Part shown: positions 41,034 through 60,208 of the stretch, one piece after another
How positions within the stretch are numbered: position 1 is the stretch's first letter
Layout of the letters: each line of letters starts with the position of its first letter
DNA from: Alphaproteobacteria bacterium
Lineage (GTDB): Bacteria > Pseudomonadota > Alphaproteobacteria > SMXQ01
Length of the DNA: 64,000 nucleotides
Direction: 5' to 3'
NCBI GenBank assembly: GCA_035714115.1
Contig: DASTMO010000078.1
Span: forward strand, 42,461-106,460
The notes under the pieces: generated by a model
What the model was told of the DNA's origin: nothing
The model's input: the letters and a program-made list of their open reading frames with translations, nothing else
Database searches by the model: none
Position numbers and translations under genes: made by a program

Positions 41034-41447
41034 ATGAGCGAGGCCGACCAGATTATCGCTGCGCTCGGCCTCGCGCCCCATCCTGAAGGCGGATATTTCC
41101 GCGAGACCTGGCGAGATGAAGCGCAACCGCGCGGCCATGGCACGGCAATTTATTATCTGCTGAAGGCAGGGGAAATCTCGCGCTGGCACCGCGTCGATGC
41201 CGCCGAAATCTGGCATTACTACGCCGGCGCAGCCCTGGCGCTCTCCATCGCCGCACCCGACGCCGAAGCCGCGACGCATAAGCTCGGGCCGGACATTCTC
41301 GACGGCGAGCAGCCGCAAATCCTCGTGCCGCCGCATCATTGGCAAAGCGCGCGAAGCCTCGGCGATTGGACGCTGGTCGGCTGCACCGTCTCGCCGGCCT
41401 TCGAGTTCGCCGGCTTCGAGATCGCCGCTAAGGATTGGAATCCTTGA
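41034..41447 (+). CDS. Cupin (DUF985-like) protein
   Basis: ATG 41034 (MSEADQIIAAL) in frame within the 40797..41447 ORF. HPEGGYFRETW is typical of the DUF985 cupin family. Confidence 0.6.
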   Translation: MSEADQIIAALGLAPHPEGGYFRETWRDEAQPRGHGTAIYYLLKAGEISRWHRVDAAEIWHYYAGAALALSIAAPDAEAATHKLGPDILDGEQPQILVPPHHWQSARSLGDWTLVGCTVSPAFEFAGFEIAAKDWNP

Positions 41448-43203
41448 GGCACCATTCGCGCCACAGCGCGCGATAGGCCGACTCAAGTGAGCGCGTGAAG
41501 CCCGCCGCATCCATCAAGGGCGAGGCCGACATGCGCGCGCGCATGCCGCCGCGCAACTCCGCCAATCTCGAACGATCGGCGGCGAGCTTTGCAGCGATAG
41601 CGACATAGTCATCGGCTGTTTGCGCCACCAAATCGCCGAGACCGATGCGCGTCATGAGGCTGGCGCCGACGCGGGCGCAATGGCGGTCGCCCGCCAGCGT
41701 CACCACCGGCACGCCCATCCACAGCGCCTCGCAGGTCGTCGTTGTGCCGTTGTAGGGCAGGCTGTCGAGCGCGACGTCCATCTCGTTATAGAGCGCCATA
41801 TGGCCGCCGTAGCCGCGCACCCGCCCGGCGAAGCCGAGACGTGCCGGATCGATGCCGGCGATGGCGAAGCGCGCCACCACGCCCTGACGCACCTCCGGAT
41901 CGTCGAGGCCGCGGGCCTTCAACAACAGGCGCGAATCCGGCACGGCGAGCAGCAGCTGCGCCCAAAGATCGAGCGTCTCGTCCGAGAGTTTCGGCAGATT
42001 GTTGAAACTGCCGAAGGTGACCGGCCCCGCCGGGCGCGCGGCGACATCCGGCGCGCCCTCGCCCGGCGCGTAGCAGAGAAAGCCGTTCGACAGACGGACG
42101 AGCTTCTCCGTCGCGAAAGCCTCATATCCATCAGGATCGGCGATGGCGTCGGTCAACCGCGCGCCCATCGTGGCGAGACCCGTCGTGTCGGGATAGCCGA
42201 GCCAAGTCACCTGCACCGGCGCAGGCTTGCGCGCGAAGACGCCGAGCCGGTTGCCGGCGGTGTGGCCGGCGAGATCGACCAGGATGTCGATGCCGTCATG
42301 ACGGATCGCCTCGGCGAGCGAGGCGTCGTTCAGCTCGCGCGCATCGCGCCAATGGGCCACCGAGGCGCGCAGCTTGGCGGTGACCGCGTCCGGCTTGGCG
42401 ACATCGGAGTAAGCATAAATCTCGACCGCCGCCGGATCATGCGCCGGCAAGACGCGCGACAGGAAGAAGGCGACCGAATGCATGTGGAAATCGGGCGAGA
42501 CATAGCCGATACGCAAGCGCCGCGCCGGATCGCGTTCGTTGCCATGCGGCGACGCTGCGGGCAATCGTGCGGCGTAAGCCGCGGCTGCGGCGCGCTGCAG
42601 CTCGAACAACTCAAGCCGGTCGGTCATCACGTAATGCGACGAAAGCGCTAGCGTCGACAGCGACGACAGGGCGTTGGGATCGCGCCGTACGGCTTCGCGA
42701 TGGGCGGCCAGGCCTTCGCTCACTTGGCGGGCGTCGATCAATGCCGAGCCCAGCCGCCCGAGCAACGATGCGGAGCTCGGCTCGAGCGCCAGCGCCTTGC
42801 GGCGCGCCGCCACCGCTTCGCTCAGCTTCTCGCGCTGGCGCAGCAGGCTGGCCAGCACCTGCCAGGCCTTCCCGTATTGCGGCGCCAGCGCCACGGCGCG
42901 GCGCAGCAGCGGCTCGGCCTCGATGATTTCGCCGCGTTCGCGGTGGATGTTGGCGAGATTGACCATGAAGTCGGGCTGACGCGGATTGCGCTCGATGGCG
43001 CGCGCCATCAAGGCAACGCCTTCATCGCCCTGACCCGCTTTGCACAAAGCGATGCCGAGCACATGGAGGATGTCGGCATTCTCCGGCTCGGCGGCCAGCA
43101 GCGGCTTCAGACGCACCGCCGCATCGGCGGCATCGCCGCGCTGCAACGCCGCGAGCGCCTGCTGGAAACTCGCCTTGAACGCCGGCCCTGTCGCCAAGAT
43201 CAA
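41428..43203 (-). CDS. TPR-repeat protein with C-terminal O-GlcNAc-transferase-like (GT41) domain
   Basis: 591 aa. N-terminal TPRs, then a C-terminal domain with MGVPVVTLAGDRHCARVGASLMTRIGL, as in SPINDLY/OGT-like bacterial proteins. Confidence 0.75.
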   Translation of the reverse strand: MILATGPAFKASFQQALAALQRGDAADAAVRLKPLLAAEPENADILHVLGIALCKAGQGDEGVALMARAIERNPRQPDFMVNLANIHRERGEIIEAEPLLRRAVALAPQYGKAWQVLASLLRQREKLSEAVAARRKALALEPSSASLLGRLGSALIDARQVSEGLAAHREAVRRDPNALSSLSTLALSSHYVMTDRLELFELQRAAAAAYAARLPAASPHGNERDPARRLRIGYVSPDFHMHSVAFFLSRVLPAHDPAAVEIYAYSDVAKPDAVTAKLRASVAHWRDARELNDASLAEAIRHDGIDILVDLAGHTAGNRLGVFARKPAPVQVTWLGYPDTTGLATMGARLTDAIADPDGYEAFATEKLVRLSNGFLCYAPGEGAPDVAARPAGPVTFGSFNNLPKLSDETLDLWAQLLLAVPDSRLLLKARGLDDPEVRQGVVARFAIAGIDPARLGFAGRVRGYGGHMALYNEMDVALDSLPYNGTTTTCEALWMGVPVVTLAGDRHCARVGASLMTRIGLGDLVAQTADDYVAIAAKLAADRSRLAELRGGMRARMSASPLMDAAGFTRSLESAYRALWREWCLKDSNP

Positions 43204-43922
43204 TACATATGCTGGCCGCCGTTCACCGACAGGGTCGAGCCGGTGATGAAGCCGGCGTCGTCGGCGACGAGGAACAGCACGGCGCGGGCAATTTCATCGG
43301 CGCGGCCCAGACGGCCGACCGGAATGCGCGCGACGATCTTTTCAAGCACGTTGGGCGGCACGGCGCGCACCATGTCGGTGTCGATATAGCCCGGCGCGAT
43401 GGCGTTGACGGTGACGTTCTTCGCCGCGCCTTCCTGGGCCAAGGCTTTGGTGAAGCCGTGGATGCCCGATTTGGCGGCGGCGTAGTTCACCTGGCCATAT
43501 TGGCCGGCCTGACCGTTGATCGAGCCGATGTTGACGATGCGGCCGAAGCTGCGCTCGCGCATGCCGTCGATCACGACGCGCGACATATTGAAGCAGGAGC
43601 CGAGATTGGTGTCGATCACCGCCTGCCAATTCTCCGGCGTCATCTTCACCATGGTGGCATCGCGCGTGATGCCGGCATTGTTGACCAGCACATCGACCGG
43701 CCCCAATTCGGCGACGATCTTGGCGACACCGGCCTGGCATTCGGGAAATTTCGCCACATCCCATTTGTAGGAGGAGATGCCGGTCTCCTTGGTGAAGGCC
43801 GCCGCCGCTTCGTCGTTGCCGGCGTAGACCGCCGCCACCTTATAGCCAGCGTTCTTGAGGGCCAGCGAAATCGCGCCGCCGATACCCCGCGTGCCGCCCG
43901 TCACCACCGCAATGCGCGCCAT
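43200..43922 (-). CDS. phaB: Acetoacetyl-CoA reductase
   Basis: 240 aa SDR. VTGGTRGIG and YAAAK motifs. 4-bp overlap with the upstream ORF. Confidence 0.9.
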   Translation of the reverse strand: MARIAVVTGGTRGIGGAISLALKNAGYKVAAVYAGNDEAAAAFTKETGISSYKWDVAKFPECQAGVAKIVAELGPVDVLVNNAGITRDATMVKMTPENWQAVIDTNLGSCFNMSRVVIDGMRERSFGRIVNIGSINGQAGQYGQVNYAAAKSGIHGFTKALAQEGAAKNVTVNAIAPGYIDTDMVRAVPPNVLEKIVARIPVGRLGRADEIARAVLFLVADDAGFITGSTLSVNGGQHMY

Positions 43923-43979
43923 GTTCCGATGCTCCGTGAAACGTCCCTGTTGAACCGAGGCTCCTGCGAGCCTTTTTAT

Positions 43980-45152
43980 TTAGCGCTCGACGCAGATGGC
44001 GATGCCCATGCCGCCGCCGATGCAGAGCGTGGCGAGGCCTTTCTTGGCGTCGCGCTTCTGCATCTCATGCAGCAGCGACACCAGGATGCGCGTGCCCGAT
44101 GCACCGATCGGATGGCCGAGCGCGATGGCGCCGCCGTTGACATTCACCTTCGCCGGATCCCAGCCGAGATCCTTGTTCACCGCGCAGGCCTGCGCCGCGA
44201 AGGCCTCGTTGGCCTCGATCAGGTCGAGATCGCCGATTTTCCAACCGGCCTTTTCCAGCGCGCGCTTGGTCGCCGGGATCGGGCCGGAGCCCATCACCGC
44301 CGGATCGACGCCGGCCTGCGCCCAGGCGCGGATCACTGCGAGCGGCTTGACGCCACGCTTGGCAGCATCGCTATCGCTCATCAGCACCACCGCGGCGGCG
44401 CCGTCGTTGATGCCCGAGGCGTTGCCCGCCGTCACCGTGCCGTCCTTGTTGAAGGCCGGACGCAGCTTGCCGAGCGTGTCGATGGTGGTGCCATGGCGCG
44501 GGAACTCGTCGACGGCGAAAATCTCCTCGCCTTTGCGCGAGACCAGGGTGATCGGCAGGATCTCATCCTTGAAACGGTCGGCCTTCTGCGCCGCTTCGGC
44601 CTTCTGCTGGCTGGCAGCGGCGAAAGCGTCCTGATCGGCGCGGCTGATCTGCCATTTGGCGGCGACATTCTCCGCCGTGATGCCCATGTGATAGCCGTTG
44701 AAGGCATCCCACAGGCCGTCGCGGATCATGCTGTCGACGAACGACAGATCGCCCATCTTCTGGCCGTTGCGCAAATGCGCGACATGGGGCGCGAGGCTCA
44801 TGTTCTCCTGGCCGCCGGCGACGACGATCGACGCGTCGCCGCTGCGGATCGCCTGAAAGCCGAGCGCGACGGATTTGATGCCCGAGCCGCAGACATGATT
44901 GACCCCGTAGGCCGGCACGCCGTCAGGCAGGCCCGCCTTGATGCTCGCCTGACGCGCCGGGTTTTGGCCTTGGCCGGCCGTCAGCACCTGGCCGAGGACG
45001 ACCTCAGAGACTTCCTCTGGCGCAGTCTTGGCGCGCGTCAGCGCCTCGGCGATCACCTTGGCGCCGAGCTCATGAGCCGGCAGGGCCGACAATTTGCCGG
45101 AGAAGGCGCCGATGGCCGTGCGAACGGCGCCGGCGATAACGATGTCGGCCAT
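43980..45152 (-). CDS. phaA: Acetyl-CoA acetyltransferase (beta-ketothiolase)
   Basis: Start at [17 protein letters not shown]. Thiolase motifs NHVCGSGIK and GGGMGIA. Confidence 0.9.
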
Positions 45153-45315
45153 GAAAACCTCCTGGGGCGCGGCGAGACAAAGATTGCGAACCGCCAGTTT
45201 AGAAGAGCGCGCGGCGGACACAAGACGATCGCGCATTGCGCGCGCTTTCGTGACGCGCGAATGACAAGCTTGTCCAAGCCATTTGCCTAAGCCGCAGGCA
45301 TGTTGCGACGCGGTG

Positions 45316-46674
45316 TCAGCGGCGTTTGGTTGCGGGCGTCTTGCGAGCGGGAGCCTTCTTGGCCGGCGTTTTCTTGGCCGGCGTTTTCTTGGCCGGCGCC
45401 TTCGCGGTTTTCGTCTTCGGCGTCATGCCGTCGAGCCAGTCGGCCAGCGGCTCCCAGCTTTGCGCGCGAGCCTGACGGCCGACGATCATCGCCACATGGC
45501 CGCTCGGCACCTTGACCGCCGTCGCCTTCGGCAAGGCAGCGGCGAGGGCCGCCGAAGAGGCCAGCGGCACGATCTTGTCCTGCTGCGGCATCAGCAAAAG
45601 CGCCGGCTTGTCGCAGCGCGCAGGATCGATCGTCTCGCCGGCGACGCGCCAGGCGCCGTTCATCGGCGCGTTCTGGCCGTACCAGCCGACGAGGCATTCG
45701 GCGGCGACCTTGGCGGCGAGCGGCACGCCATCGTTCACCCAATCTTCCAGCGCGACGAACAATTCGCCGTTTTCTCCGGCCTGTTGGCTCTTGGCGAAGG
45801 CGCGGTATTTGCGCCCGACCAGATAGGGATCGAGGCTGGCGAACATGGCCTGCAGCAGATCGACGGGAAATTCCGCCAAACTTGCGAAGGCCGCCGTCAA
45901 CGTCGCCGCATTGGCGGCATCGAGCGGCGCTTGGATCGGCGCGCCCTCCGCCTGGAAATCCCAGGGCGTCGCCAGCAATGCAAGCGCCGAGACCTTGTTC
46001 GGATGCAGCTGCGCCAAGGCCAAAGCGAGATTGCCGCCCATGCAATAGCCGATCACCGCCAGAGGCTTGCCCGCAGCTTTCGCCGCTGCGTCGAGCGCGC
46101 CCGCCAATCGCCCGGCGATGTAGTCGGTGAGATCGAAGCCGCGCTCGATCTCGCCCGGCGCGTCCCAATCGACCAGCAACGGGCGATGGCCGCGCGCGGC
46201 GAGATAGCGCAGCAAGCTGGTCTTGCCGGTGAGGTCGAGCACATGGCCGCGATTGACCAGCGACGGCACGACGAGAACCGTCGAACCCGTATTGCGCGTC
46301 CCGTAATCGAGCAGGCGCGTTGTGCCCTCGCGCCAGAGGACCGGCGGCTCTTTCAGCGAGCGGCGATAGGGATGGGCGCGATAGGCCGAGACGCCGGCGG
46401 CGAATTCGAGAAAGCGGTCTTCGCCGGCATGATCGACGGCGGCGGCAAGATCGTCACCGCTTACCGCGCCGAGAGCCTTTTGCAGCGCTGCCGCCTCGGC
46501 GGCGAGCGGCGCCGGCCAGGGAAAGCCGCCGCTGGCGATCAGCGGCAGAGCGGCGCGCAGGCTTGCCCAAGCCGTTCCCGCGCTCGCCAGATGCAGCGCC
46601 AGCGGGCGCGGACCCAGCCGATGCGCTGCCCGGCTGGGCTTTGGGCTTTTCTTCTGTGCGGGACGGCGCGCCAT
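45316..46674 (-). CDS. phaC: Poly(3-hydroxyalkanoate) synthase PhaC (catalytic core; N-terminus apparently displaced into another frame), with C-terminal lysine-rich AKP-repeat tail
   Basis: Lipase box with Cys nucleophile ([11 protein letters not shown]). LIASGG and [13 protein letters not shown] match the LIESGG and PPCINKYYILDL motifs as I recall them from Cupriavidus necator (Ralstonia eutropha) PhaC, i.e. alignment against a remembered, not searched, reference. Asp/His downstream. Tail is [26 protein letters not shown]. Confidence 0.7.
45354..45405 (-). repeat. 15-bp tandem DNA repeat (ggccggcgttttctt, about 3 copies) encoding the PAKKT repeats of the PhaC tail
   Basis: Direct repeats visible at 45361-45405. 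Confidence 0.5.
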
Positions 46675-46675
46675 G

Positions 46676-46954
46676 GGACGGGACAGAACCTGCGAATGGA
46701 GGCTGCGACAGCGCCGCGAGACTATGGCCTGCGGCGGCGACGAACCAGAGCTTCAGGGCATCCAGCGCCGCGCCGGACATGGAGCCGGACAGGACGCCGG
46801 TCACGGCAGCCAAATCGGGGGCATCCTGTCCCGGCGACGCGCTTTTTGCGGCAAACGCGAAGGCCGCCTGACGCTCCCAAAGATCGAAAAGAGCTTTCGC
46901 AAATGCGGCGATTTCGCCGTTTTGGCCGCCTTTTTCGCCCGATTCGTCGCTCAT
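46676..46954 (-). other. ORF likely encoding the displaced N-terminal ~93 aa of phaC (the frame changes near 46675), alternatively a separate small gene
   Basis: In ORF 46454..46954 the translation looks protein-like only up to about 46676, exactly where the phaC-core ORF starts in the +1 frame. 93 aa plus the core would restore a class-I-length PhaC. Confidence 0.3.
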
Positions 46955-47135
46955 TTGCCAAGTTTATCAGTGTGCCGAGCCATTCGCCAGGACGATGCCG
47001 CGGCGCAGCGAAAGCTTGCGCGATGCAGCATTTTCACGCCATCTTGAAGGCTGTTCGACCGGGGAAGCGTCCAGAGAGCCCGCGCCGGTCCCAGGTTTCA
47101 CTCTGTGATTTCACGCAGCGCCCGAGGACGATCCC

Positions 47136-47729
47136 ATGACCGACACCCCCGGCACGGACAGCCCCGTCATCACCATCAAGAAATACGCCAACCGCCGTCT
47201 CTACAATACGGCGACATCGAGCTACGTCACGCTCGAGCATCTGGCGCAAATGGTGAAAGAGGGCGTCGACTTCGTGGTGCTCGACGCCAAGACCAACGAA
47301 GACCTCACCCGCCAGGTGCTGACGCAGATCATCATCGAGGAAGAGGCCAAGGGCGAGAATCTGCTGCCGATCAAATTCCTGCGCCAGATGATCGGCCTTT
47401 ACGGCCACGGCATGCAGGGTCTGGTGCCGCGCTATCTCGACCTCAGCATGGAATCCTTCTCGCGCAACCAGCAGCAGATCCGCAGCTATATGGAAGAGAC
47501 CTTCTCCGGCCTCTTTCCGTTCGGCGACAAGCTGAACGAAATGGGCAAACGCAACATGGCGATGTTCGAAGACGCCATGAAGATGTTCTCGCCCTTTCCG
47601 GCCGCGCAAGGCGGCGCGACCCGCCCGGCGGACGACGGCGAGGGTGAATCGGCCGAGATCCGCGATCTCAAGGCCAAGCTGGACACGCTGCAGAACCAGC
47701 TCGATCAGCTGCTGCGCGCCAAGAAATAG
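47136..47729 (+). CDS. phaR: Polyhydroxyalkanoate synthesis repressor PhaR
   Basis: VITIKKYANRRLYNTATSSYVTLE is the PhaR DNA-binding signature. 197 aa. Confidence 0.9.
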   Translation: MTDTPGTDSPVITIKKYANRRLYNTATSSYVTLEHLAQMVKEGVDFVVLDAKTNEDLTRQVLTQIIIEEEAKGENLLPIKFLRQMIGLYGHGMQGLVPRYLDLSMESFSRNQQQIRSYMEETFSGLFPFGDKLNEMGKRNMAMFEDAMKMFSPFPAAQGGATRPADDGEGESAEIRDLKAKLDTLQNQLDQLLRAKK

Positions 47730-49859: not shown

Positions 49860-51287
49860 TTAAGGAACCGCCCGCAAAGCTTCGCTCAAAATGCCGAAGA
49901 GTTCGGCGATTTGCGCCGCACTCACGATGAGCGGCGGCGACAATGCGATGATGTCGCCGGTGACGCGGATCAGTAGGCCGCGCTTCTGGCATTCGAGGAA
50001 CACCTCGTAGGCGCGCGCGCCAGGCGCGCCCGGGCGCGGCGCGAGCTCGATGCCGGCGACCAAGCCGATATTGCGAATGTCGATGACGTTGGGCAGGCCT
50101 TTGAGCGCATGCGCCGCCTCTTCCCACGGCGCCGAAAGATCGGCGGCGCGCTGGAAAAGATTGTCGCGCTCATAGATGTCGAGCGTCGCGAGCGCCGCGG
50201 CGCAGGCCAGCGGATGGGCCGAATAGGTGTAGCCGTGGAACAGCTCGATGACGTTCTCCGGCCCGTTCATGAAGGCGTCATAGATGCCCTTGCGCACCAT
50301 CACGCCGCCCATCGGCACGGCGCCGTTGGTGATGCCCTTGGCCATCGTCATCAGATCGGGAACGACGCCGAAATAATCGGCAGCGAAGGGCGCTCCGAGA
50401 CGGCCGAAGCCGGTGATGACCTCGTCGAAGATCAAGAGGATGCCGTGCTTGTCGCAAATCGCGCGCAGCTTCTCGAGATAGCCCTGCGGCGGCACCAGTA
50501 CGCCGGTCGAGCCGGCCATCGGCTCGACGATGACGGCGGCGATCGTCGAAGCGTCGTGCAGCGTCACCAGCGCTTCGAGATTGTCGGCGAGATGCGCGCC
50601 CCATGCCGGCTGGCCGCGCGAGAAGGCATTGTGCTCGAGGTTATGCGTGTGCGGCAGATGGTCGACGCCGTTGAGCATGTTGCCGAACTGCTTGCGGTTG
50701 CCGACGATGCCGCCGACCGAGATGCCGCCGAAGTTCACGCCGTGATAGCCGCGCTCGCGGCCGATCAGGCGCGTGCGCGAGCCTTCGCCGCGCAGCTTAT
50801 GGTAGGCGAGCGCGATCTTCAGCGCCGTCTCGACCGATTCGGAGCCCGAATTGGTGAAGAACACATGATCCAAATCGCCCGGCGCCATGCCGGCGAGACG
50901 GCTCGCCAGCTCGAAGGCCTTCGGATGGCTCATCTGGAAGGCGGTGGCGTAATCCATCTCGCGCGCCTGCTCGGCGATGGCGTCGGCGATCTCGTCGCGG
51001 CAATGGCCGGCGTTGACGCACCACAGGCCGGCGCTGCCGTCGAGCAGCTTGCGTCCGTCGGTCAGCTCGTAATGCATGTCCTTGGCTTTGGCGATCAGGC
51101 GCGGCGCCGCCTTGAACTGGCGGTTCGGCGTGAATGGCACCCAATAGGCCTCGAGATCGTTGCGCGCCGTGGCGCTCTGGTTCGCCGAGCGGGCCGTGTT
51201 CGCGGCAATCGTTTTTTTACGGGACGCCGTCCCATTTTCGGCGCCGCTTTTGCGGGTCGCGGGCTTATCGGTCGTGCCGCCGGTCAT
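49860..51287 (-). CDS. Class III (omega) aminotransferase, beta-alanine/omega-amino acid--pyruvate type
   Basis: 475 aa. Close match throughout to the omega-amino-acid:pyruvate aminotransferase family (LWCVNAGH, DEVITGFGRLG, TMAKGITNGAVPMG). Confidence 0.85.
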   Translation of the reverse strand: MTGGTTDKPATRKSGAENGTASRKKTIAANTARSANQSATARNDLEAYWVPFTPNRQFKAAPRLIAKAKDMHYELTDGRKLLDGSAGLWCVNAGHCRDEIADAIAEQAREMDYATAFQMSHPKAFELASRLAGMAPGDLDHVFFTNSGSESVETALKIALAYHKLRGEGSRTRLIGRERGYHGVNFGGISVGGIVGNRKQFGNMLNGVDHLPHTHNLEHNAFSRGQPAWGAHLADNLEALVTLHDASTIAAVIVEPMAGSTGVLVPPQGYLEKLRAICDKHGILLIFDEVITGFGRLGAPFAADYFGVVPDLMTMAKGITNGAVPMGGVMVRKGIYDAFMNGPENVIELFHGYTYSAHPLACAAALATLDIYERDNLFQRAADLSAPWEEAAHALKGLPNVIDIRNIGLVAGIELAPRPGAPGARAYEVFLECQKRGLLIRVTGDIIALSPPLIVSAAQIAELFGILSEALRAVP

Positions 51288-51599: not shown

Positions 51600-51983
51600 G
51601 TGCAGATCGGCGCCAGCGCCATAACCCCTTACGGGATGCAGTCCAGCGCGACGACAGCGATGTCGGCGCAGGCGGGCGCGCGTGCCTATGCGGAAATGAC
51701 GCCGGTCGCGCCGGTCAGCGAGATTCTGCGCGGCCAGCGCGGCGAAGCTTGGATCGACGCGTCTTGGACCGAAGCGCCCGAGCGCCCAGCCCAGATCGAT
51801 CCTTACGAGACCGGCGAAACCGACGGCGCCGTGGCCTTCGCCGCCCAGACCCTGGGCCAGACGGCCGAGCCGCACTATGCCGCCCCGGCGGCCCATCAGG
51901 TCGGCTGCGCCGCCTATCGCGCGGCGCAAGGCGGCCAAGGCGAATTCCGCCGCGGCGACATGGGCATCGACCTGGTCGCCTAA
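51600..51983 (+). CDS. Hypothetical small acidic Ala/Gln-rich protein (start uncertain: GTG 51600 or ATG near 51636)
   Basis: High GC3 codon usage consistent with real coding. No recognisable domain. Sits just upstream of the glycosyltransferase operon. Confidence 0.35.
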   Translation: MQIGASAITPYGMQSSATTAMSAQAGARAYAEMTPVAPVSEILRGQRGEAWIDASWTEAPERPAQIDPYETGETDGAVAFAAQTLGQTAEPHYAAPAAHQVGCAAYRAAQGGQGEFRRGDMGIDLVA

Positions 51984-52101: not shown

Positions 52102-53304
52102 ATGGACGCCGACGCGCGCGCTCCCCATTCCCTTAAAGTGCTTCACGTCATCACCGGCCTCAACACGGGCGGCGCGGAGATGATGCTGACCAAGCTGCTG
52201 GCGCGCCTGCCGCAGACGCAGACGCGCCATGTGGTCGTCTCTCTGACCGGCGGCGGACCGCTAGCCGACCGCATCGCCGGTTATGGCATCCCGGTGATCT
52301 TTCTCGGATTGAATGCCACCGGCTTTCTCGCCAAGGCGAAGGCCGCGTTCGGCGGCCTGCGTCAGCTGCGCCGCCTGATCGCCAAGGAGAAGCCCGACAT
52401 CGTCCAAGCCTGGATGTATCACGCCAACCTGTTCGCCGGCGTCGCCTCCCTCGGCTTGTCGGCCGTGATCTGGGGCATCCGCCAGAGCGACCTCGATCCT
52501 GCCGTCAGCAAACGCTCGACCATCCGTGTCGCCAAGCTCGGCGGTTTCCTCTCGCGCGCCTTGAGCGATTCGATCCTCTGCTGCTCGGAAGTCGCGCGCG
52601 TCGTGCATGAACGCATCGGCTATGATCCAGGCCGCATGGTGGTGATTCCCAACGGTTTCGATCTCGCCGAATTCAAGCCAGACGCGGCGGCGCGCGCCGC
52701 CGTGCGCCGCGAGATCGGCCTCGGCGACGACATTCCCCTCATCGGGCTGATCGCCCGCTTCGATTCGCAGAAAGACCACCGCAATTTTCTCGCCGCCGCG
52801 GCCGAGGTCAGCCGCGCGCTGCCGCAAGCGCGCTTCCTGCTGTGCGGCGGCGGCATCGACGCGCAGAACAAGACGCTGGCGAACTGGATTTCCGAGTTCG
52901 GCCTCGATGGCCGCTGCCACATGCTGGGCGCGCGCGCCGACATGCCGGCGGTGACCGCCGCGCTCGACGTCGCAGTTTCCGCGTCAGCCTTCGGCGAAGG
53001 TTTTCCCAACGTGCTCGGCGAAGCGATGGCCTGCGGTGTGCCCTGCGTCGCCACGGACGTCGGCGATTCGCGCCTCATCGTGCGCGAAACGGGGCGCATC
53101 GTGGCGCCGCGCGAGCCTGAAGCGTTGGCCGACGCCATCGCGAGCATCCTGCGCCTGCCGGCCGCCGACCGTGCCGCGCTCGGCGCCGCCGCGCGCCAAC
53201 GCATCGCCCAGCATTTCGAGATCGGCGTGATCGCCGAGCGCTATCTCGCGCTTTACCGCGACACTCTCGCGGCAAAAGCGCCAGCCGAACGCATGGGAGC
53301 CTGA
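52102..53304 (+). CDS. Glycosyltransferase family 4 (GT-B fold)
   Basis: 400 aa. N-terminal VITGLNTGGAEMM and C-terminal E-x7-E region (EGFPNVLGEAMACGVPCVATDVG). Confidence 0.8.
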   Translation: MDADARAPHSLKVLHVITGLNTGGAEMMLTKLLARLPQTQTRHVVVSLTGGGPLADRIAGYGIPVIFLGLNATGFLAKAKAAFGGLRQLRRLIAKEKPDIVQAWMYHANLFAGVASLGLSAVIWGIRQSDLDPAVSKRSTIRVAKLGGFLSRALSDSILCCSEVARVVHERIGYDPGRMVVIPNGFDLAEFKPDAAARAAVRREIGLGDDIPLIGLIARFDSQKDHRNFLAAAAEVSRALPQARFLLCGGGIDAQNKTLANWISEFGLDGRCHMLGARADMPAVTAALDVAVSASAFGEGFPNVLGEAMACGVPCVATDVGDSRLIVRETGRIVAPREPEALADAIASILRLPAADRAALGAAARQRIAQHFEIGVIAERYLALYRDTLAAKAPAERMGA

Positions 53305-53307
53305 CCC

Positions 53308-55263
53308 ATGTGCGGCATCGCCGGCCTTCTCGACCATTCGCGCACCCTCGGCGGCGACTCGCTGGAATCCCTCGCCGCGCGCATGGCGGGCACGCTGCTG
53401 CATCGCGGGCCGGATGACGGCGGCGCTTGGAGCGCGGCCAACGCCGGCATCGGCTTCGGCTTCCGCCGCCTAGCCATCATCGATCTGACGCCCGCCGGCC
53501 ATCAGCCGATGCTGGCAGACGACGGCAAATCGGCCATCGTCTTTAACGGCGAAATCTACAACGCCGAAGACATCCGCCGCGAGCTCGATGCCATGGGCGG
53601 CGCGCCCAATGGGGGCTGGCGCGGCCATTCCGACACCGAGGTGCTGCTGCAGGCCTGCCGCCGCTTCGGCGTCGTCGGCGCGACCCAGCGGCTCGTCGGC
53701 ATGTTCGCTTTCGCCTTTTGGGACGATGCGGCGCAGCGCTTGACGTTGGTGCGCGACCGCCTCGGCATCAAGCCGCTCTATTGGGCGCGCGCCGGCAAGC
53801 AGTTCCTCTTCGCCTCCGAGCTCAAGGCGCTGCGCGCTCATCCTGACTTCTCGGCTGAGATCGATGACACCGCGCTCTCGGCCTATCTGCGCCAAGCCTA
53901 CGTGCCGGCACCGCGCAGCATCTATCGCGACGCGGCCAAATTGCCGCCCGGCCACATGCTGACCGTGACGGCCGGCGGCGAGCCGCAGATCTCGCGCTAC
54001 TGGAACCTGCGCGACATCGCGCGCGACGGCCAACGCGCCGCCAAGAACAAGCCGATCGACAACGCCGCCGCCATCGAGGAGATGGACAAGCTGCTGCGCG
54101 AGGCGGTGAAGCTGCGCATGATCGCCGACGTGCCGCTCGGCGCGTTTCTCTCGGGCGGCATCGATTCATCGACCGTGGTCGCGCTGATGCAGGCGCAGTC
54201 GGACCGGCCGGTGAAGACCTTCACCATCGGTTTTCACGAGGCGGGCTACAACGAAGCGGCCCACGCCAAGCAGGTTGCGGCCCACCTCGGCACCGAGCAT
54301 ACCGAGCTTTACATCAGTCCCGATCACGCGTTGCAGTTGATCCCGCGCATCCCGGACCTGTTCGACGAGCCCTTCGCCGATCCGTCGCAGGTGCCGACCT
54401 ACCTCGTCTCCGAGATGACGCGCCGCCATGTCACAGTCGCGCTGTCGGGCGACGGCGGCGACGAATTGTTCGCCGGCTATTCCCGCTATTCCTGGGCCGC
54501 GCGGCTGAAGCGCTGGACCGACAGCGTGCCCCTGCCGCTGCGTCAGCTCACCGCCGCCGCCATGCGCGCCGTGCCGACCGAAAGCTGGGATTCGCTGTCG
54601 CGCCTCATTCCCGAGAATCGCCGGCCGCGCCAGTTTGGCCATAAGGTACAGAAGCTCGCCGGCCTGCTCGCCGAGCGTTCGGCCGACGACGTGCGCCGCC
54701 GCCTGGTCGGCTTCTGGCACAAGCCCGAGGAGCTGCTCGGCCGCGAATACGCTCCCTATGACGCGCTGTGGGACGACAGCATCAACGCCGATCTGCCGGA
54801 CTTCACGGCGCGCATGCAATATCTCGACACGGTGACCTATCTGCCGGACGACATCCTGGCGAAGGTCGATCGCGCCAGCATGGCGGTGAGCCTGGAAGCG
54901 CGCGTGCCGCTGCTCGACCATCGCGTGGTCGAGCATGTCTGGAACCTGCCGGCCGATCTCAAGCTGCATCAAGGCAAGGCCAAATGGCTGCTGCGCCAGG
55001 TGCTCTACAAATATGTGCCGGCGTCCCTCGTCGAGCGCCCGAAAATGGGCTTCGCCGTGCCGATCAACAGCTGGCTGCGCGGGCCTTTGCGCGATTGGGC
55101 CGAAAGCCTGCTCGACGAGACCCGCCTGAAGCGCGAAGGCATCTTTGATCCCGCTCCGATACGCCGCAAGTGGCAGGAGCACTTATCCGAAAGCCGGGAT
55201 TGGCAGTTCGATCTTTGGGTCGTACTGATGTTCCAAGCTTGGCATGAAAGGTGGCGGCCGTGA
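53308..55263 (+). CDS. Asparagine synthase (glutamine-hydrolysing) family amidotransferase
   Basis: MCGIAG N-terminal nucleophile Cys2. SGGIDSS PP-loop. 651 aa. Confidence 0.85.
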   Translation: MCGIAGLLDHSRTLGGDSLESLAARMAGTLLHRGPDDGGAWSAANAGIGFGFRRLAIIDLTPAGHQPMLADDGKSAIVFNGEIYNAEDIRRELDAMGGAPNGGWRGHSDTEVLLQACRRFGVVGATQRLVGMFAFAFWDDAAQRLTLVRDRLGIKPLYWARAGKQFLFASELKALRAHPDFSAEIDDTALSAYLRQAYVPAPRSIYRDAAKLPPGHMLTVTAGGEPQISRYWNLRDIARDGQRAAKNKPIDNAAAIEEMDKLLREAVKLRMIADVPLGAFLSGGIDSSTVVALMQAQSDRPVKTFTIGFHEAGYNEAAHAKQVAAHLGTEHTELYISPDHALQLIPRIPDLFDEPFADPSQVPTYLVSEMTRRHVTVALSGDGGDELFAGYSRYSWAARLKRWTDSVPLPLRQLTAAAMRAVPTESWDSLSRLIPENRRPRQFGHKVQKLAGLLAERSADDVRRRLVGFWHKPEELLGREYAPYDALWDDSINADLPDFTARMQYLDTVTYLPDDILAKVDRASMAVSLEARVPLLDHRVVEHVWNLPADLKLHQGKAKWLLRQVLYKYVPASLVERPKMGFAVPINSWLRGPLRDWAESLLDETRLKREGIFDPAPIRRKWQEHLSESRDWQFDLWVVLMFQAWHERWRP

Positions 55264-56186
55264 GCGACGGCACGACAGAAGCGACGCCGAAAGCCCGCGT
55301 GTCTTCCTGGCGGACGGCGATTCCCTGGTGGGTGAAGATCACCGCGAAGGTCGCGTTGAGCCGCCTGCCGGTGAGCGGGCGCGTCTGGCAGCAGCTGCGC
55401 ATCTTCTCGCCCGGCGACATGCTGCTGCCCGATTACGCCATCGGCGTGTTTCGCGCCCACTACCAGCGCGCCGGCCGTCCCGCACCGGGTTTCACCTATC
55501 TGGAATTGGGACCGGGCGATTCGCTCGCCACCGCCGCGGTCGCTTGGGCGCATGGCGCGGCCGGCGGCTGGCTCGTCGATGCCGGCGCTTATGCCGCGCG
55601 CGACATCGACCTCTATCGTCCGTTGCTCGACCGTCTGGCCGAACAGCATGAGGCGCTCGGCCTGCTGCGCGACGTGCGCGGCCTGAAAGATTGCGGTTCG
55701 GTCGCCGAGCTGCTCGAACGAACCGGTTGCCGTTTCCGTGAAAACGGCCTCGCCGATCTCAAGGCTATTCCCGAGGGCAGCATCGACTTCGTGCTGTCGC
55801 AAGCGACGCTCGAGCATGTGCCGCGCGCCGAGTTCGCCGCGACCATGCGCGAGCTTTACCGCCTGATGAAGCCGGGCGCGGCCAGCTCGCACCAGATCGA
55901 TTTCAAGGACCATCTCGGCGGCTCGCTGCACAACCTGCATTTCTCCGAAGGCTTCTGGGAGAAGCCCTGGTTCGCGCGGCGCAGCGGGTTCTACACCAAC
56001 CGCCTGCAGCTCTCCGACGTGCTGCGCGACATGGCCGCTGCCGGCTTCGCCGTCGAGATCGTTCAGAAAGAGACCTGGGACGCGCTGCCGGTCGAGAAGA
56101 GCCGTCTGGCCATGCCCTTCCGCGAGCGATCCGACGAAGATCTCAAGACCAAGAGCGCGGAACTGATCGCCAAGAAACATGCCTGA
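55251..56186 (+). CDS. Class I SAM-dependent methyltransferase
   Basis: GTG start overlapping the asnB-like stop. LELGPGDS SAM-binding motif I. Confidence 0.6.
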   Translation: MAAVSDGTTEATPKARVSSWRTAIPWWVKITAKVALSRLPVSGRVWQQLRIFSPGDMLLPDYAIGVFRAHYQRAGRPAPGFTYLELGPGDSLATAAVAWAHGAAGGWLVDAGAYAARDIDLYRPLLDRLAEQHEALGLLRDVRGLKDCGSVAELLERTGCRFRENGLADLKAIPEGSIDFVLSQATLEHVPRAEFAATMRELYRLMKPGAASSHQIDFKDHLGGSLHNLHFSEGFWEKPWFARRSGFYTNRLQLSDVLRDMAAAGFAVEIVQKETWDALPVEKSRLAMPFRERSDEDLKTKSAELIAKKHA

Positions 56187-57339
56187 CGGCCTTTCCGGCT
56201 CCAAGACGCTGCTGTTTCTCGTCACCGAGGATTGGTACTTCTGCTCGCACCGCCTGCCGATCGCGCGCGCGGCGCGCGACGCCGGTTATGACGTGGCGGT
56301 GGCGACCCGCGTGGCGGCCCATGGCGAGGCGATCCGCGCCGAGGGCTTTCGCCTGATCCCGCTCGCCAAGCTCGGCCGCAGCATGGGCAATCCGCTGCGC
56401 GAACTGTCGGGCCTGCTCGAAGTCGTCCGGCTCTATCGCCGCGAGAAGCCCGACATCGTCCATCACGTCGCGCTCAAGCCGGCGATCTTCGGCTCGCTCG
56501 CCGCGCGAATCGCCGGCGTTAAGCGCACCGTCAACGCCATTGCCGGCCTCGGCAGCATCTTTTCCTCGCAGAGCGCCAAAGCGCGCCTGCTCCGCCCTGT
56601 GGTGAAGCTCGCCTTCCGCCTTCTGCTCAACCGCGAAGGCGCTGCCGTGATCGTGCAGAATCCAGATGACGGCCGCCTGCTGACCGGCGGCGGCCTCGTC
56701 GATCCGGCGCGCCTTACCTTGATCAAGGGCTCGGGCGTCGATCTGGCGCGCTTCGCCGCCACGGCTGAACCTGTGACCGACGCGGTCCATCCGCCGATCG
56801 CCACGCTGGTCTCGCGCATGCTGTGGGACAAGGGCGTTGGCGTGCTGGTCGAGGCGGCCCGTCTTCTGCGCGCGCGCGGCGTTCCCTTGCGCGTGCGCCT
56901 TGCCGGCACGCCGGACCCCGAAAACATGGGCTCCATCCCCGAGGAACAGTTGCGCGCCTGGCATGACGAAGGCGTTGTCGAGTGGATCGGCTTTTGCGAC
57001 GATGTGGCGGGCCTTTGGCGGGCCAGCCATATCGCCGTGCTGCCCTCCTGGTATGGCGAAGGCGTACCGAAAAGCCTGCTCGAAGCCGCCGCAGCCGCGC
57101 GGCCCATGGTCGCCGTCGACGGCCCGGGCCTGCGCGAGGTGGTGACGGACGGAGAGACCGGCCTGCTGGTCGGCCCGCGCGATGCCGCCGCCTTGGCCAG
57201 CGCGCTGCAGCGGCTCGCCGAGGACGGCGCGATGCGCCGGCGCATGGGCGAAGCTGCGCGAAGACGCGCAGAGCATGAGTTCGGCGAAGCCGCGGTGGCC
57301 GAAGCGACCTTGGCGCTGTACCGCCGCTTATTGACGTAG
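56179..57339 (+). CDS. Glycosyltransferase family 4 (GT-B fold)
   Basis: 386 aa. C-terminal EGVPKSLLEAAAAARPMVAVDGPG E-x7-E-like motif. 8-bp overlap with the methyltransferase. Confidence 0.75.
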   Translation: MPDGLSGSKTLLFLVTEDWYFCSHRLPIARAARDAGYDVAVATRVAAHGEAIRAEGFRLIPLAKLGRSMGNPLRELSGLLEVVRLYRREKPDIVHHVALKPAIFGSLAARIAGVKRTVNAIAGLGSIFSSQSAKARLLRPVVKLAFRLLLNREGAAVIVQNPDDGRLLTGGGLVDPARLTLIKGSGVDLARFAATAEPVTDAVHPPIATLVSRMLWDKGVGVLVEAARLLRARGVPLRVRLAGTPDPENMGSIPEEQLRAWHDEGVVEWIGFCDDVAGLWRASHIAVLPSWYGEGVPKSLLEAAAAARPMVAVDGPGLREVVTDGETGLLVGPRDAAALASALQRLAEDGAMRRRMGEAARRRAEHEFGEAAVAEATLALYRRLLT

Positions 57340-57356
57340 GGAGAGATCGACAGGCC

Positions 57357-58544
57357 ATGAGCCGCGCGCCGCGCCGCACCGCCCGCAACAAGCGCCCGAA
57401 AAAGACCGGGGCGCCGGCCGCCACGCGCCTGATCCGCACCGCGCGCGAGGAGGATATTCCCGCCCTGTTGATGATCGAGCATCAGTCCTTCCCGACCGAC
57501 CGCATCTCGCAACGCTCTTTCCGCTACATGCTGACCAAGGGCAACGCCTGCACCCTGGTCGAGGCCGACCGTGCGAGCGGCGAGATCCGCGGCTACGCCA
57601 TGGTCTCCTTCAACCGCTCGACCTCGCTGGCGCGGCTCTATTCGATCGCGGTGGCGCCGCGCTGGCGCGCCAAGGGGGTCGGCCGCGCCCTGCTGCGCGC
57701 TGCCGAAGAGGCCGCGCGCGAGAAATCCGCCGCCTACATGCGCCTGGAAGTGCGCGCCGAAGACAAAGACACCCAGGCCTTCTATCGCAGCATGGGCTAC
57801 AAGCCCTTCGGCACCCACAGCCAGTATTATGACGACGATGCCGACGCCGTCCGCATGGACAAGATCATCGCGCCCGGCCTCGCCCCCAATGTCACCCGCG
57901 TGCCTTACTACCGCCAGCGCCTCGACTTCACCTGCGGCCCGGCGGCGGTGATGATGGCGATGCATGCGCTCGACCGCGACAGGCCGATGACGGCGATCGA
58001 GGAGCTCCGCATCTGGCGCGAGGCGACCACGATCTTCATGACCCAGGGCCATGGCGGCACCAGCGCGCAAGGCCTGGCCCTCGCGGCTTGGAAGCGCGGC
58101 TTCGATGTCGAGCTGCATACCAACGAGCGCGGCGTGCCCTTCGTCGAGAGCGTGCGCAGCGAGCTCAAGCGCGACGTGATCCGCGCGGTCCACCAGGACT
58201 TTCTCGACGAATTGGCGAAGACCAAAGTGCAGCTCGTGCCGCGCGCCCTGAGCTTCAAGCAGCTCCGCGAGAAGTTCGATGCCGGCGGCATCCCCATCGT
58301 GCTGGTCTCCTCCTACCAGTTCGACCGGCGCAAGGAACTGCATTGGGTTGTTGTGACCGGCTACGACGACACCTATGTTTACGTCCACGATCCTTTCGTC
58401 GACGTCGCCGAAGCCAAAAGCCAGACCGACCGCATGCATATTCCGGTCCCGCAACGCATTTTCGACCGCATGGCGCGCTACGGCTCGCGCCATCGCAAGG
58501 CCGCGCTGATCGTCAAGCCGCGCCGCAAGACGAGCGCGCCATGA
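57357..58544 (+). CDS. GNAT N-acetyltransferase fused to a C39-like papain-fold cysteine peptidase domain
   Basis: N-terminal GNAT (RLYSIAVAPRWRAKGVGRALL, motif A). C-terminal DFTCGPAAVMMAMHAL (catalytic Cys) and HWVVVTGYDD (His). Confidence 0.75.
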   Translation: MSRAPRRTARNKRPKKTGAPAATRLIRTAREEDIPALLMIEHQSFPTDRISQRSFRYMLTKGNACTLVEADRASGEIRGYAMVSFNRSTSLARLYSIAVAPRWRAKGVGRALLRAAEEAAREKSAAYMRLEVRAEDKDTQAFYRSMGYKPFGTHSQYYDDDADAVRMDKIIAPGLAPNVTRVPYYRQRLDFTCGPAAVMMAMHALDRDRPMTAIEELRIWREATTIFMTQGHGGTSAQGLALAAWKRGFDVELHTNERGVPFVESVRSELKRDVIRAVHQDFLDELAKTKVQLVPRALSFKQLREKFDAGGIPIVLVSSYQFDRRKELHWVVVTGYDDTYVYVHDPFVDVAEAKSQTDRMHIPVPQRIFDRMARYGSRHRKAALIVKPRRKTSAP

Positions 58545-60136
58545 CGCAGCACGTCATCGTCGTCGACCGCGAGGAAGACTTCAAATGGCCGGCGGAGAAC
58601 CGCCAGGTGCTGACGGCCAAGGAGTTCGTCGGCAACATCCGCGGCAAAGACGGCGGCAAGAAATTTCCCGCTTCGGCGCGCGTCATCAATCTCTGCCGCG
58701 ATTACAGCTACCTTTCGCTCGGCTATTACTCCTCGCTGCTCGCCGAAGCGCGCGGCCAGAAAGTGATTCCCTCCGTCGAGGTGCTGCTCGACCTCAATTG
58801 GAAGCGGCTCTATCAGAGCGATCTGCCGGAGCTGAACGACCTGCTGCGCAAGACCTTCTCCGGCAGCGACGAAGATCCGGTCGGCTTCACCCTGCATCTG
58901 TTCTTCGGCGCCGCCGACGACGTGCGGCTGCGCGAGCTGGCGCGGCGCATCTTCGACCTGTTCCGCGCGCCGATGCTGGCGGTGGATTTGCGCAACGGCA
59001 AGGAGGGCTGGGAGATCACGGCCATCCGGCCGATCTCGATCAAGGATCTGCCCGCCGGGCAGGAAGACGCTTTCGCCGTCGCGCTGGATCGCTATACACG
59101 CAGCGCCTGGCGGGCCGCCAAGCCGGACCAGCCGGCGGTCTATTCCATCGCCATCCTGCACAATCCGCAGGAGCGGCTACCGCCGTCGAACGAGCGCGCG
59201 CTGAAAAAATTCATCAAGATCGGCGAGCAGATGGGCGTCGAGATGGAGCTCATCACGCGCAAGGATTACAGCCGCCTGCCGGAATATGACGCGCTGTTCA
59301 TCCGCGAGACGACCGACCTCGACGACCACACCTATCGCTTCGCGCGCAAGGCCGAGGACGAAGGCATGCCGGTGATCGACAGCCCGCAGGCCATCCTCAA
59401 ATGCACCAACAAGATCTATCTCGCCGAGCTGCTCACCGCCAACGGCGTGCCGACGCCGCGCACGCTGACGCTGGATCGCCGCCAGCTCGATCGCGTCGAG
59501 GCCGAGTTCGGCTATCCGGTCGTCATCAAGATCCCCGACGGCTCCTTCTCGCGCGGCGTGCACAAGGTCGAGAACCGCGAGCAGCTCGAGGAGCTGGCCG
59601 GCAAGCTGTTCGAGGAATCTGACCTGATCCTCGCCCAGGAATTCATGCAGACCGAATACGACTGGCGCGTCGGCGTGCTCAACTACAAGCCGATCTTCGT
59701 CTGCCAGTACTTCATGGCCAAGGGCCATTGGCAGGTGCTGAAGTACCATAACGGCGGCCAGACCGATTACAGCGAGGGCGACGACCGCTCCTTCTCCGTC
59801 GAGGACGCCCCCCGCGAGATCGTCGATATCGCGGTGAAGGCCGCCAGCCTGATCGGCGATGGTTTGCACGGCATCGACATCAAGCAGACGGCAAACGGCG
59901 TCTATGTCATCGAGATCAACGACAACCCGAACATCGACGCCGGCGTCGAGGACGCGGTGCTGAAGGACGATCTCTATCGCCTGATCATTCGCGATTTCGT
60001 CCGCCGCATCGAAAAGCGCAACGCCGCCCTGCCTGCCGCCGCCCGCCATGTGACGCAAGCTCCGGCCCAAGCTCCCGCGCAGCCCGCCGCCGAAGAGGCC
60101 GAGCCAGCTCCCCCGGCGCGCAGCGCCGCATCCTAG
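58541..60136 (+). CDS. RimK-type ATP-grasp ligase with N-terminal RLAN (RimK-like ATP-grasp N-terminal) domain
   Basis: ATG 58541 overlapping the upstream stop. The C-terminal half has ATP-grasp motifs (VVIKIPDGSFSRGVHKV, DWRVGVLN, HGIDIKQTANGVYVIEINDNPN). The N-terminal ~230 aa (LCRDYSYLSLGYYSSLLAEARG) matches RLAN. Confidence 0.8.
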   Translation: MTQHVIVVDREEDFKWPAENRQVLTAKEFVGNIRGKDGGKKFPASARVINLCRDYSYLSLGYYSSLLAEARGQKVIPSVEVLLDLNWKRLYQSDLPELNDLLRKTFSGSDEDPVGFTLHLFFGAADDVRLRELARRIFDLFRAPMLAVDLRNGKEGWEITAIRPISIKDLPAGQEDAFAVALDRYTRSAWRAAKPDQPAVYSIAILHNPQERLPPSNERALKKFIKIGEQMGVEMELITRKDYSRLPEYDALFIRETTDLDDHTYRFARKAEDEGMPVIDSPQAILKCTNKIYLAELLTANGVPTPRTLTLDRRQLDRVEAEFGYPVVIKIPDGSFSRGVHKVENREQLEELAGKLFEESDLILAQEFMQTEYDWRVGVLNYKPIFVCQYFMAKGHWQVLKYHNGGQTDYSEGDDRSFSVEDAPREIVDIAVKAASLIGDGLHGIDIKQTANGVYVIEINDNPNIDAGVEDAVLKDDLYRLIIRDFVRRIEKRNAALPAAARHVTQAPAQAPAQPAAEEAEPAPPARSAAS

Positions 60137-60208
60137 GTCCACGCGCAGCGCCGCATCCTAGGTCCACGCGCAGCGCGGCCTCGTAACAGCTCTGGGTAAC
60201 AGCTCTGG
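60118..60208 (+). repeat. Tandem duplications at the 3' end of the RimK-like gene: 25-bp unit x2.5 (60118-60180) and 13-bp unit x2 (60183-60208)
   Basis: gcgcagcgccgcatcctaggtccac is repeated directly. The first copy contains the stop codon. gtaacagctctgg is repeated directly. Confidence 0.7.

Follow-up and report, generated by a model that had tools for sequence, protein, structure and literature searches.

A glycan-type gene cassette adjoining an RLAN-RimK/GNAT-C39 pair in one clade of Alphaproteobacteria

Here, we describe a unit of six genes in a 64,000-nucleotide stretch of alphaproteobacterial DNA (GenBank assembly GCA_035714115.1, contig DASTMO010000078.1, positions 42,461 to 106,460), referred to below as the window. 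The first four genes encode two family 4 glycosyltransferases (GT4a and GT4b), an AsnB-family amidotransferase and an S-adenosylmethionine (SAM)-dependent methyltransferase (MT), and we call them module A (52102-57339). The last two, module B (57357-60136), encode a GNAT acetyltransferase fused to a C39-like cysteine peptidase domain, and an ATP-grasp ligase in which an RLAN domain precedes a RimK-type domain. A preliminary description of this DNA had read the six genes as one translationally coupled operon and had proposed a common glycosylated or amidated peptidyl product. Comparison with other genomes showed that the two modules are independent of each other and were joined in a single clade, whose members are uncultured Alphaproteobacteria. 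Each module is of a known kind; it is the fusion of a glycan cassette with the RLAN-RimK pair that has not been described before.

Genes, domains and junctions of the unit

The unit (52102-60136) consists of six open reading frames (ORFs), all on the plus strand. Their coordinates and the Pfam profile matches confirmed the genes, the order and the domain assignments given in the preliminary description (Table 1).

Table 1. Genes and repeats of the unit, with positions in the window
Feature	Position	Strand	Remarks
Small ORF, candidate seventh gene	51600-51983	+	127 aa; no Pfam/NCBIfam match
GT4a, GT4 glycosyltransferase (module A)	52102-53304	+	Pfam Glyco_transf_4 + Glycos_transf_1
AsnB-family glutamine-dependent amidotransferase, WbpS/WbqG type (module A)	53308-55263	+	GATase_7 + Asn_synthase (407 bits)
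Class I SAM methyltransferase, MT (module A)	55260-56186 (alternative start 55251)	+	Methyltransf_11, 31 bits (cut-off 21)
GT4b, GT4 glycosyltransferase with Glyco_trans_4_2-type N-domain (module A)	56179-57339	+	Glyco_trans_4_2 + Glycos_transf_1
RimI/Ard1-like GNAT + DUF3335 C39-like fusion (module B)	57357-58544	+	Acetyltransf_1 + DUF3335/PF11814
RLAN + RimK/LysX-type ATP-grasp ligase (module B)	58541-60136	+	RLAN (PF14401) + RimK Pfam
Perfect 25-bp tandem repeat, 2.4 copies, across the RimK stop codon	60117-60176		Tandem Repeats Finder
Perfect 13-bp repeat, 2 copies, after the 25-bp repeat	60183-60208		Tandem Repeats Finder

The junctions, read directly from the DNA, bore out the translational coupling and the overlaps noted earlier. 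Across the unit they range from an 8-bp overlap to a 17-bp gap, with the overlap between asnB and the MT gene reaching 13 bp if the start at 55251 is taken. GT4a and asnB are separated by 3 bp, asnB and the MT gene share GTGA (a 4-bp overlap when the GTG start at 55260 is used), the MT and GT4b genes overlap by 8 bp at ATGCCTGA, and the GNAT and RimK genes overlap by 4 bp at ATGA. The 17-bp gap lies between GT4b and the GNAT gene, that is, between the two modules, and it contains a GGGAGAG ribosome-binding site. A consensus scan found no promoter-like sites within the unit, the terminator-like matches there were not clearly above the shuffled expectation, and Rfam gave zero matches anywhere in the unit. 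As these scans provided no usable signal, it is the gene spacing that suggests co-transcription of the six genes. The intergenic space is so small that it leaves no room for an additional gene, such as one for a carrier protein, and no PP-binding domain of an acyl or peptidyl carrier protein (ACP/PCP) was found in the six proteins or their neighbours.

In the ligase of module B, the RLAN domain (approximately residues 1-190) scored 149.9 bits at a cut-off of 25, and the RimK domain scored 37.9 bits at a cut-off of 21, with the RimK/LysX-type ATP-grasp region covering approximately residues 200-500. The AlphaFold2 model of the protein has an N-terminal alpha/beta region followed by the ATP-grasp domain. 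The score against TIGR00768 (RimK family alpha-L-glutamate ligase) was 98.1 bits, which is below the cut-off of 143.4, and against NF007764 (S6 ligase) it was 34 bits as compared to 331. The window ligase differs from RimK, which ligates glutamate to S6, and from the LysW-dependent LysX/ArgX, by its extra 190-residue N-terminal RLAN domain; it also stands in neither an S6 nor a LysW context and, unlike RimK and LysX, it is paired with a GNAT.

In the partner protein, the GNAT domain occupies approximately residues 25-170 and the DUF3335 C39-like papain-fold domain approximately residues 182-386. The preliminary description had called the latter a C39-like cysteine peptidase, and this holds insofar as PF13529 (Peptidase_C39_2) is passed with 44.5 bits at a cut-off of 24; however, the best match is PF11814 (DUF3335), with 272 bits at a cut-off of 25, and the canonical Peptidase_C39 model PF03412 stays at 19.4 bits, under its threshold of 22. 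The papain-type set Q187, C193, H329 and D345 is invariant in 48 sequences of the domain. The GNAT part resembles the RimI/Ard1 (Naa10) N-alpha-acetyltransferases, from which it differs in scoring under the RimI family cut-off of 86 bits and in being fused to a peptidase-like domain. Among characterised enzymes, those most closely related to the two module B proteins, RimI/Ard1 on one side and RimK/LysX/ArgX on the other, modify protein termini. DUF3335 domains are often fused to GNAT domains (PMC10318531). No ABC (ATP-binding cassette) exporter partner of the C39-like domain was found in the neighbourhood, where the ABC system is an NMT1-type importer that is not conserved with the pair.

In module A, the N-terminus of AsnB reads MCGIAG, so the Cys2 nucleophile is present. 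The best-scoring NCBIfam model for this protein is TIGR03108 (eps_aminotran_1; 604.9 bits), yet its cut-off of 816.9 is not reached; the generic asparagine synthase model TIGR01536 is passed with 493 bits at a cut-off of 267. The TIGR03108 members WbpS, WbqG and PGN_1234 (P. gingivalis) are needed for the conversion of uronic acid to uronamide in surface glycans (PMC7468200). The window AsnB has the same architecture, an N-terminal Cys glutamine amidotransferase followed by Asn_synthase, and it is predicted to turn a uronic acid into a uronamide. Motif I of the methyltransferase is LELGPGDS. Both glycosyltransferases are generic GT4 enzymes: against TIGR03088 (PEP-CTERM/XrtA glycosyltransferase, cut-off 409; the best NCBIfam match of GT4a) GT4a scored 162.5 bits and GT4b 118.5 bits, and neither passes.

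Distribution of the two modules and of a small upstream ORF

Loci with RLAN-RimK were drawn from genomes (one per species), from JGI metagenome contigs and from identity look-ups of close homologues, which gave 167 anchored loci. Pattern matches confirmed as relatives numbered at least 598 in the species genomes (598 of the 600 listed) and at least 586 in the metagenome contigs (586 of the 600 listed), and the best 80 loci were kept from each of these two sources. More than 7,800 protein clusters match the pair, which is present in Pseudomonas, Azospirillum, Ferrovibrio and many metagenome-assembled genomes (MAGs). The GNAT gene adjoins the RimK gene in 156 of the 167 anchored loci, at least 118 of these 156 having the full GNAT + C39-like fusion, and in 6 further loci the contig ends within 135 bp upstream of the RimK gene. 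The two genes are co-directional in most Alphaproteobacteria and divergent in Pseudomonas.

The partner was GNAT-only or partial in about 38 of the 167 loci (including L010-L014, L017, L018, L022, L031, L048, L064, L070, L072, L075 and L076); among the first 80 loci, 17 have a match that is confined to the GNAT portion of the window protein. In some genomes of Pseudomonas there are two RimK loci, one with each kind of partner (L074 with L076, and L048 with L068).

All-against-all clustering of the neighbouring ORFs in 86 loci revealed no third conserved partner of the pair beyond genus-level synteny, and therefore the substrate of the pair would be one that is present in all these bacteria. 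The genes just downstream of the pair, as judged by Pfam scans, were heterogeneous (CorA, GumN, MepA, DctP, LysR and a sigma-54 activator). Iyer, Aravind and co-workers reportedly predicted a system of RLAN-RimK and GNAT-peptidase from comparative genomics in 2009. Module B is typical of the predicted system (PF14401, PF11814) in its genes, domains and adjacency; the glycosyltransferases, amidotransferase and methyltransferase are not part of that prediction and constitute a clade-specific extension here. We found no experimental study of the RLAN-RimK/GNAT-C39 pair in the literature that could be reached. Klebsiella CfmP, which was considered as a relevant case, was set aside, since it is a TupA-like ATP-grasp enzyme of a different family.

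The join to module A has a much narrower distribution. In tblastn searches with the window proteins (E <= 1e-3), GT4a, AsnB, MT and GT4b adjoined RimK only in L001, L081-L085, L087 and L094. Upstream sequence of 6.2 kb or more was available for 101 loci; 95 of them, with RimK identities of 47-61%, have no GT4, AsnB or MT homologue, and the six that carry the cassette have RimK proteins at least 69% identical and belong to one exclusive clade. Polysaccharide genes within 10 kb were likewise absent from all 95 evaluable loci outside the clade. A neighbour-joining tree of RimK places the loci with the cassette in an exclusive group, with pair-only MAGs of Rhodospirillales and alphaproteobacterial origin as its sister group. 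Thus, it can be concluded that the join happened once. Absence of synteny with glycosyltransferases in other genomes had been named in the preliminary description as a sign of coincidental adjacency, and the survey comes close to such absence, with 95 of 101 loci lacking the cassette and the other six representing one clade.

We also asked whether RimK itself bears the mark of a new function in the clade. Only one of approximately 108 highly conserved columns is changed there, no more than in control groups, and neofunctionalisation was therefore rejected. As the positions conserved across the family are kept, the chemistry of RimK is probably unchanged in the clade.

A panel of other polysaccharide genes gave no matches in the remaining loci except L086, a sister-lineage metagenome contig that was itself the source of four panel genes. 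In this contig (10001-21584) RLAN-RimK abuts an O-antigen-like cluster with a Polysacc_synt flippase, a GT4, WbqC, a GT2, methyltransferases and a hexapeptide transferase. RLAN-RimK is separated from the GNAT gene, 2.3 kb upstream, by SET-domain and CNNM genes, and the GT4 is not orthologous to GT4a.

Pure adjacency of the modules, with an internal promoter before the GNAT-C39 gene driving module B separately, seems very unlikely to us. A promoter would fit into the 86-97 bp that separate GT4b and the GNAT gene in L085 and L087, and it could also lie inside GT4b; moreover, most other genomes have a separate promoter for the pair. In the window, however, the gap of 17 bp accommodates the ribosome-binding site only, the two genes overlap in L083, and no promoter-like or convincing terminator-like site was found at the GT4b/GNAT junction.

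The relatives of module A are found in different surroundings. AsnB homologues of approximately 60% identity are numerous in Alphaproteobacteria, and the contexts of AsnB orthologues outside the clade (58-60% identity) were in 4/4 cases ordinary surface-polysaccharide loci of the Wzy, flippase or ABC types without RimK. In Azospirillum brasilense (L088) the gene is accompanied by a WecA-type transferase, Polysacc_synt_2, epimerases and a GT4b orthologue (50%; AsnB 60%), and in a Hyphomicrobiaceae MAG (L089) by Polysacc_synt_2, DegT and two GT4 genes. Locus L170 has Wzy_C, a MurJ-type flippase and several methyltransferases, with an MT (49%) adjoining a GT4b orthologue (53%) and a GT4 adjoining AsnB (58%). 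Locus L171 has an ABC exporter and Wzy_C together with GT4, MT, GT4, AsnB (60%) and a GT4a orthologue (40%). The identity of GT4b to the GT4 genes of the polysaccharide or lipopolysaccharide (LPS)-type loci L088, L170 and L171 is 47-53%, and the GT4a orthologues that adjoin AsnB in L170 and L171 are 29-40% identical.

Since TIGR03108 is the best model for AsnB and its orthologues sit in polysaccharide loci, module A can be regarded as a glycan-tailoring cassette, and the analysis places it with the WbpS-type, uronamide-forming glycan machinery. The likeness to WbpS, WbqG and PGN_1234 extends to the embedding of the AsnB orthologues among GT4, Wzy and flippase genes and to the predicted uronamide reaction (PMC7468200). 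The window AsnB differs from these enzymes in staying below the family cut-off and in not being part of a complete polysaccharide locus: the polysaccharide-locus context is that of the 58-60% orthologues, while around the window gene there are two GT4 genes and an MT gene only. Within approximately 10 kb of the unit we found no priming glycosyltransferase, flippase, Wzy polymerase, polysaccharide exporter or exosortase.

The methyltransferase gene is a hotspot of allelic replacement. The window and L081 (MAG GCA_044226095.1) share approximately 96.6% DNA identity over 15 kb, and the other five proteins are 97-100% identical between them. The MT alone is replaced: the window protein (308 aa) and that of L081 (299 aa; 6743-7642) are 58% identical, and the breakpoints of the swap are exactly the asnB stop and the GT4b start. 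The foreign allele is that of the window, because the L081 allele is 79% identical to the one in L083. Allele swapping is typical of surface-glycan loci under diversifying selection, and the exchange between these strains may be taken as a sign of surface-glycan diversification.

The presence of an ATP-grasp ligase, a GNAT, a peptidase-like domain and an AsnB-type amidotransferase in one cluster recalls the pathway for N-acetylglutaminylglutamine amide (NAGGN), with AsnO, the Ngg GNAT/ATP-grasp fusion and an M42 peptidase. By analogy, the GNAT and the RimK-like ligase could make an N-acetyl dipeptide, and the unit could yield an N-acetylated, amidated di- or oligopeptide, perhaps glycosylated by the GT4 enzymes to a compatible solute. 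We consider such a solute pathway unlikely. The four catalytic domain types are common to both systems, and cytoplasmic glycosides are indeed made by GT4 enzymes such as MshA, BshA and sucrose-phosphate synthase (only weak matches to these were obtained here), but the cut-offs of the NAGGN models TIGR03104, TIGR03103 and TIGR03106 are widely missed or the component is lacking. AsnB scores 399.9 bits against TIGR03104 (cut-off 570.1) and 605 bits against TIGR03108, which places it closer to the glycan-type enzymes, and its orthologues sit in polysaccharide loci, as described above. The GNAT match to TIGR03103 is weak (27 bits, cut-off 569), the domain fusions are different, and the peptidase is papain-like and thus of another clan than M42, no M42 peptidase being present in the locus. 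In addition, the pair normally occurs without any amidotransferase.

The preliminary description had set the extent of the operon at six genes. These six were found, but a conserved small ORF 118 bp upstream of GT4a, itself preceded by an AT-rich intergenic region, probably belongs to the transcription unit as well. It is called as a gene, with its position kept, in L081, L083 and L087 and is recognisable in L001 and L094. Throughout the clade its position is conserved; module B and this ORF are the only constant neighbours of module A. The relatives, of 118-140 aa, evolve fast, and the extreme C-terminus is their most conserved part (motif AAYxxxx..[IVF]D[LIV]x[VA]-stop). The ORF is coding-like, with a GC content at third codon positions (GC3) of 0.83 and changes dominated by third codon positions. 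A small ORF upstream of AsnB in L088 was examined as a possible counterpart and proved not to be homologous.

The product of the small ORF could in principle be the substrate of both modules, in a scheme like that of peptides made on ribosomes and modified after translation (RiPPs) or of another protein modification: cleavage would fall to the C39-like domain, N-acetylation to the GNAT, extension of the C-terminus to RimK, and glycosylation, amidation or methylation to module A. The clade-wide position, the conserved C-terminus and the coding-like substitutions would suit this role, and so would the facts that C39 domains process peptide leaders and that RimK and LysX act on C-termini. We nevertheless find the scheme highly improbable, as the ORF product has neither a double-glycine motif nor an acidic C-terminus, has no family match or exporter partner, and could equally be a regulator. 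Because the ORF is missing from the many pair-only loci, its product is excluded as a general substrate for the pair.

Independent modules or a shared product

With moderate confidence, we favour the reading that the unit is a lineage-specific mosaic operon of two modules that are co-transcribed and chemically independent, each with an evolutionary history of its own and most likely with its own chemistry. A promoter upstream of either the small ORF or GT4a would drive both modules as one transcript. Module A would be a glycan-tailoring cassette taken from a locus of the O-antigen or exopolysaccharide (EPS) type, in which sugars are added by GT4a and GT4b, the WbpS-like amidotransferase turns the carboxylate of a uronic acid into a uronamide with ATP and with ammonia from glutamine, and the SAM methyltransferase methylates the glycan. 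Module B would be a self-contained, widespread, cytoplasmic two-gene system. Its RimK/LysX-type ATP-grasp enzyme would activate a carboxylate, most likely the C-terminal or a side-chain carboxylate of a peptide or protein, or that of an N-acyl amino acid, to an acyl phosphate and then ligate an amino acid, probably a glutamate-like one. The RimI-like GNAT would acetylate an alpha-amino group, and the C39-like Cys-His-Asp domain would cleave or trim the module B substrate or act as a transacylase.

Several observations weigh against chemical independence. Module A is detached here, within at least 10 kb, from a priming transferase, flippase, polymerase and exporter, and so stands outside its usual export and polymerisation context. 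The clade keeps the gene order down to 69% identity in RimK and 56-57% in AsnB while the flanks vary: L087 and L001 are without the aminotransferase that precedes the unit in the window, L094 and L085 have different downstream genes, and L085 also lacks the internal MT. As the join is retained in all members of the clade amid this change, there is room for a functional link. The modules adjoin tightly: they are 17 bp apart in the window and overlap by 4 bp in L083. Finally, a PCMT-like/Methyltransf_23 gene directly follows RLAN-RimK in L094 (11592-12533), L085 (8924-9490) and the P0007 contig (2403-3206), so that in these members the pair sits between tailoring genes; this additional methyltransferase is limited to deep-branching clade members and is missing from the window and from the sampled pair-only loci.

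These points would be explained if the pair had been recruited to the detached cassette and both modules built one hybrid product in the clade. Such a product could be a surface or periplasmic oligosaccharide carrying an amide-linked amino acid or peptide on a uronic acid or aminosugar, where RLAN-RimK ligates, the C39-like domain serves as a transacylase and the GNAT adds an N-acetyl group, in addition to the uronamide and methyl groups. Alternatively, the peptide or amino-acid product of the pair could be glycosylated by the two GT4 enzymes, giving a glycosylated N-acetyl peptide. The small upstream ORF and, in some members, the PCMT-like methyltransferase would possibly take part as well.

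Amino-acid-decorated glycans are real chemistry. In butirosin biosynthesis the ATP-grasp enzyme BtrJ and the papain-like transacylase BtrH act on an aminoglycoside, the acyl chain ending on an aminosugar, and the closthioamide enzymes CtaD and CtaG, of which CtaG matches PF11814, offer a further precedent (PMC7183216). For P. gingivalis, a 2-N-seryl glucuronamide whose synthesis involves WbpS serves as the linking sugar (PMC7468200). What module B shares with BtrJ/BtrH and CtaD/CtaG is that an ATP-grasp amide ligase is combined with a Cys-His-Asp papain-fold enzyme of the C39/BtrH-like kind. However, those systems depend on an ACP or PCP for thiotemplating and work with a pyridoxal phosphate (PLP)-dependent decarboxylase, neither of which is present here, and they employ ATP-grasp enzymes of a type other than RLAN-RimK.

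We regard a shared product as a genuine but doubtful possibility. The join is a single evolutionary event, glycosyltransferases are absent from 95/95 other evaluable loci of the pair, and the pair is absent from 4/4 outside contexts of AsnB. At its conserved sites RimK has no change peculiar to the clade, a carrier protein like those serving BtrJ/BtrH and CtaD/CtaG is missing from the operon, and both module B enzymes are closest to modifiers of protein termini. The tight coupling on which the earlier interpretation was built does exist, but a common glycosylated or amidated peptidyl product follows from it only weakly, and, with the association confined to one clade, that interpretation has only partial support. 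Its statement that no characterised pathway has this architecture agrees with the literature that could be searched, where we found none.

Should the modules be independent, as the comparative data slightly favour, the unit illustrates that tight translational coupling seen in a single genome speaks for a shared pathway only when the association recurs independently. If they do share their chemistry, the extra enzymes would narrow down the substrate of the pair and could point to a new class of amino-acid-decorated glycans; a hybrid product would also give genetic access, for the first time, to the chemistry of a pair found in well over 1000 genomes and metagenome contigs. The pair is a large, widespread family that deserves experiments.

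Surroundings of the unit

Upstream of the unit and divergent from it, an AptA-type omega-aminotransferase is encoded at 49860-51287 on the minus strand (NF052567, 751 bits). A 73% identical protein is encoded in L094 (1511-2962, minus strand). Because the gene is kept there yet missing from L001 and L087, we did not count it in the unit. Besides the aminotransferase, the minus strand upstream carries an MHYT/PAS histidine kinase. Farther upstream lies a polyhydroxybutyrate (PHB) locus with a short-chain dehydrogenase/reductase (SDR) at 43200-43922, a thiolase (43980-45236), a hydrolase (45316-46674) and phaR (47136-47729). Two plus-strand ORFs in this region, 43209-45290 (693 aa) and 45283-47139 (618 aa), were rejected as upstream genes, as they have no family matches and are antisense shadows of the minus-strand thiolase and hydrolase genes, a high-GC artefact. 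The PHB genes are adjoined by a gene for a protein with tetratricopeptide repeats (TPR) and a GT41 domain (O-GlcNAc-transferase-like; 41428-43203, minus strand).

Downstream of the unit we found an NMT1-type binding protein, an ABC ATPase and permease, and a transporter of the major facilitator superfamily (MFS). The 25-bp and 13-bp repeats listed in Table 1 are both present at the 3' end of RLAN-RimK in L081 as well.

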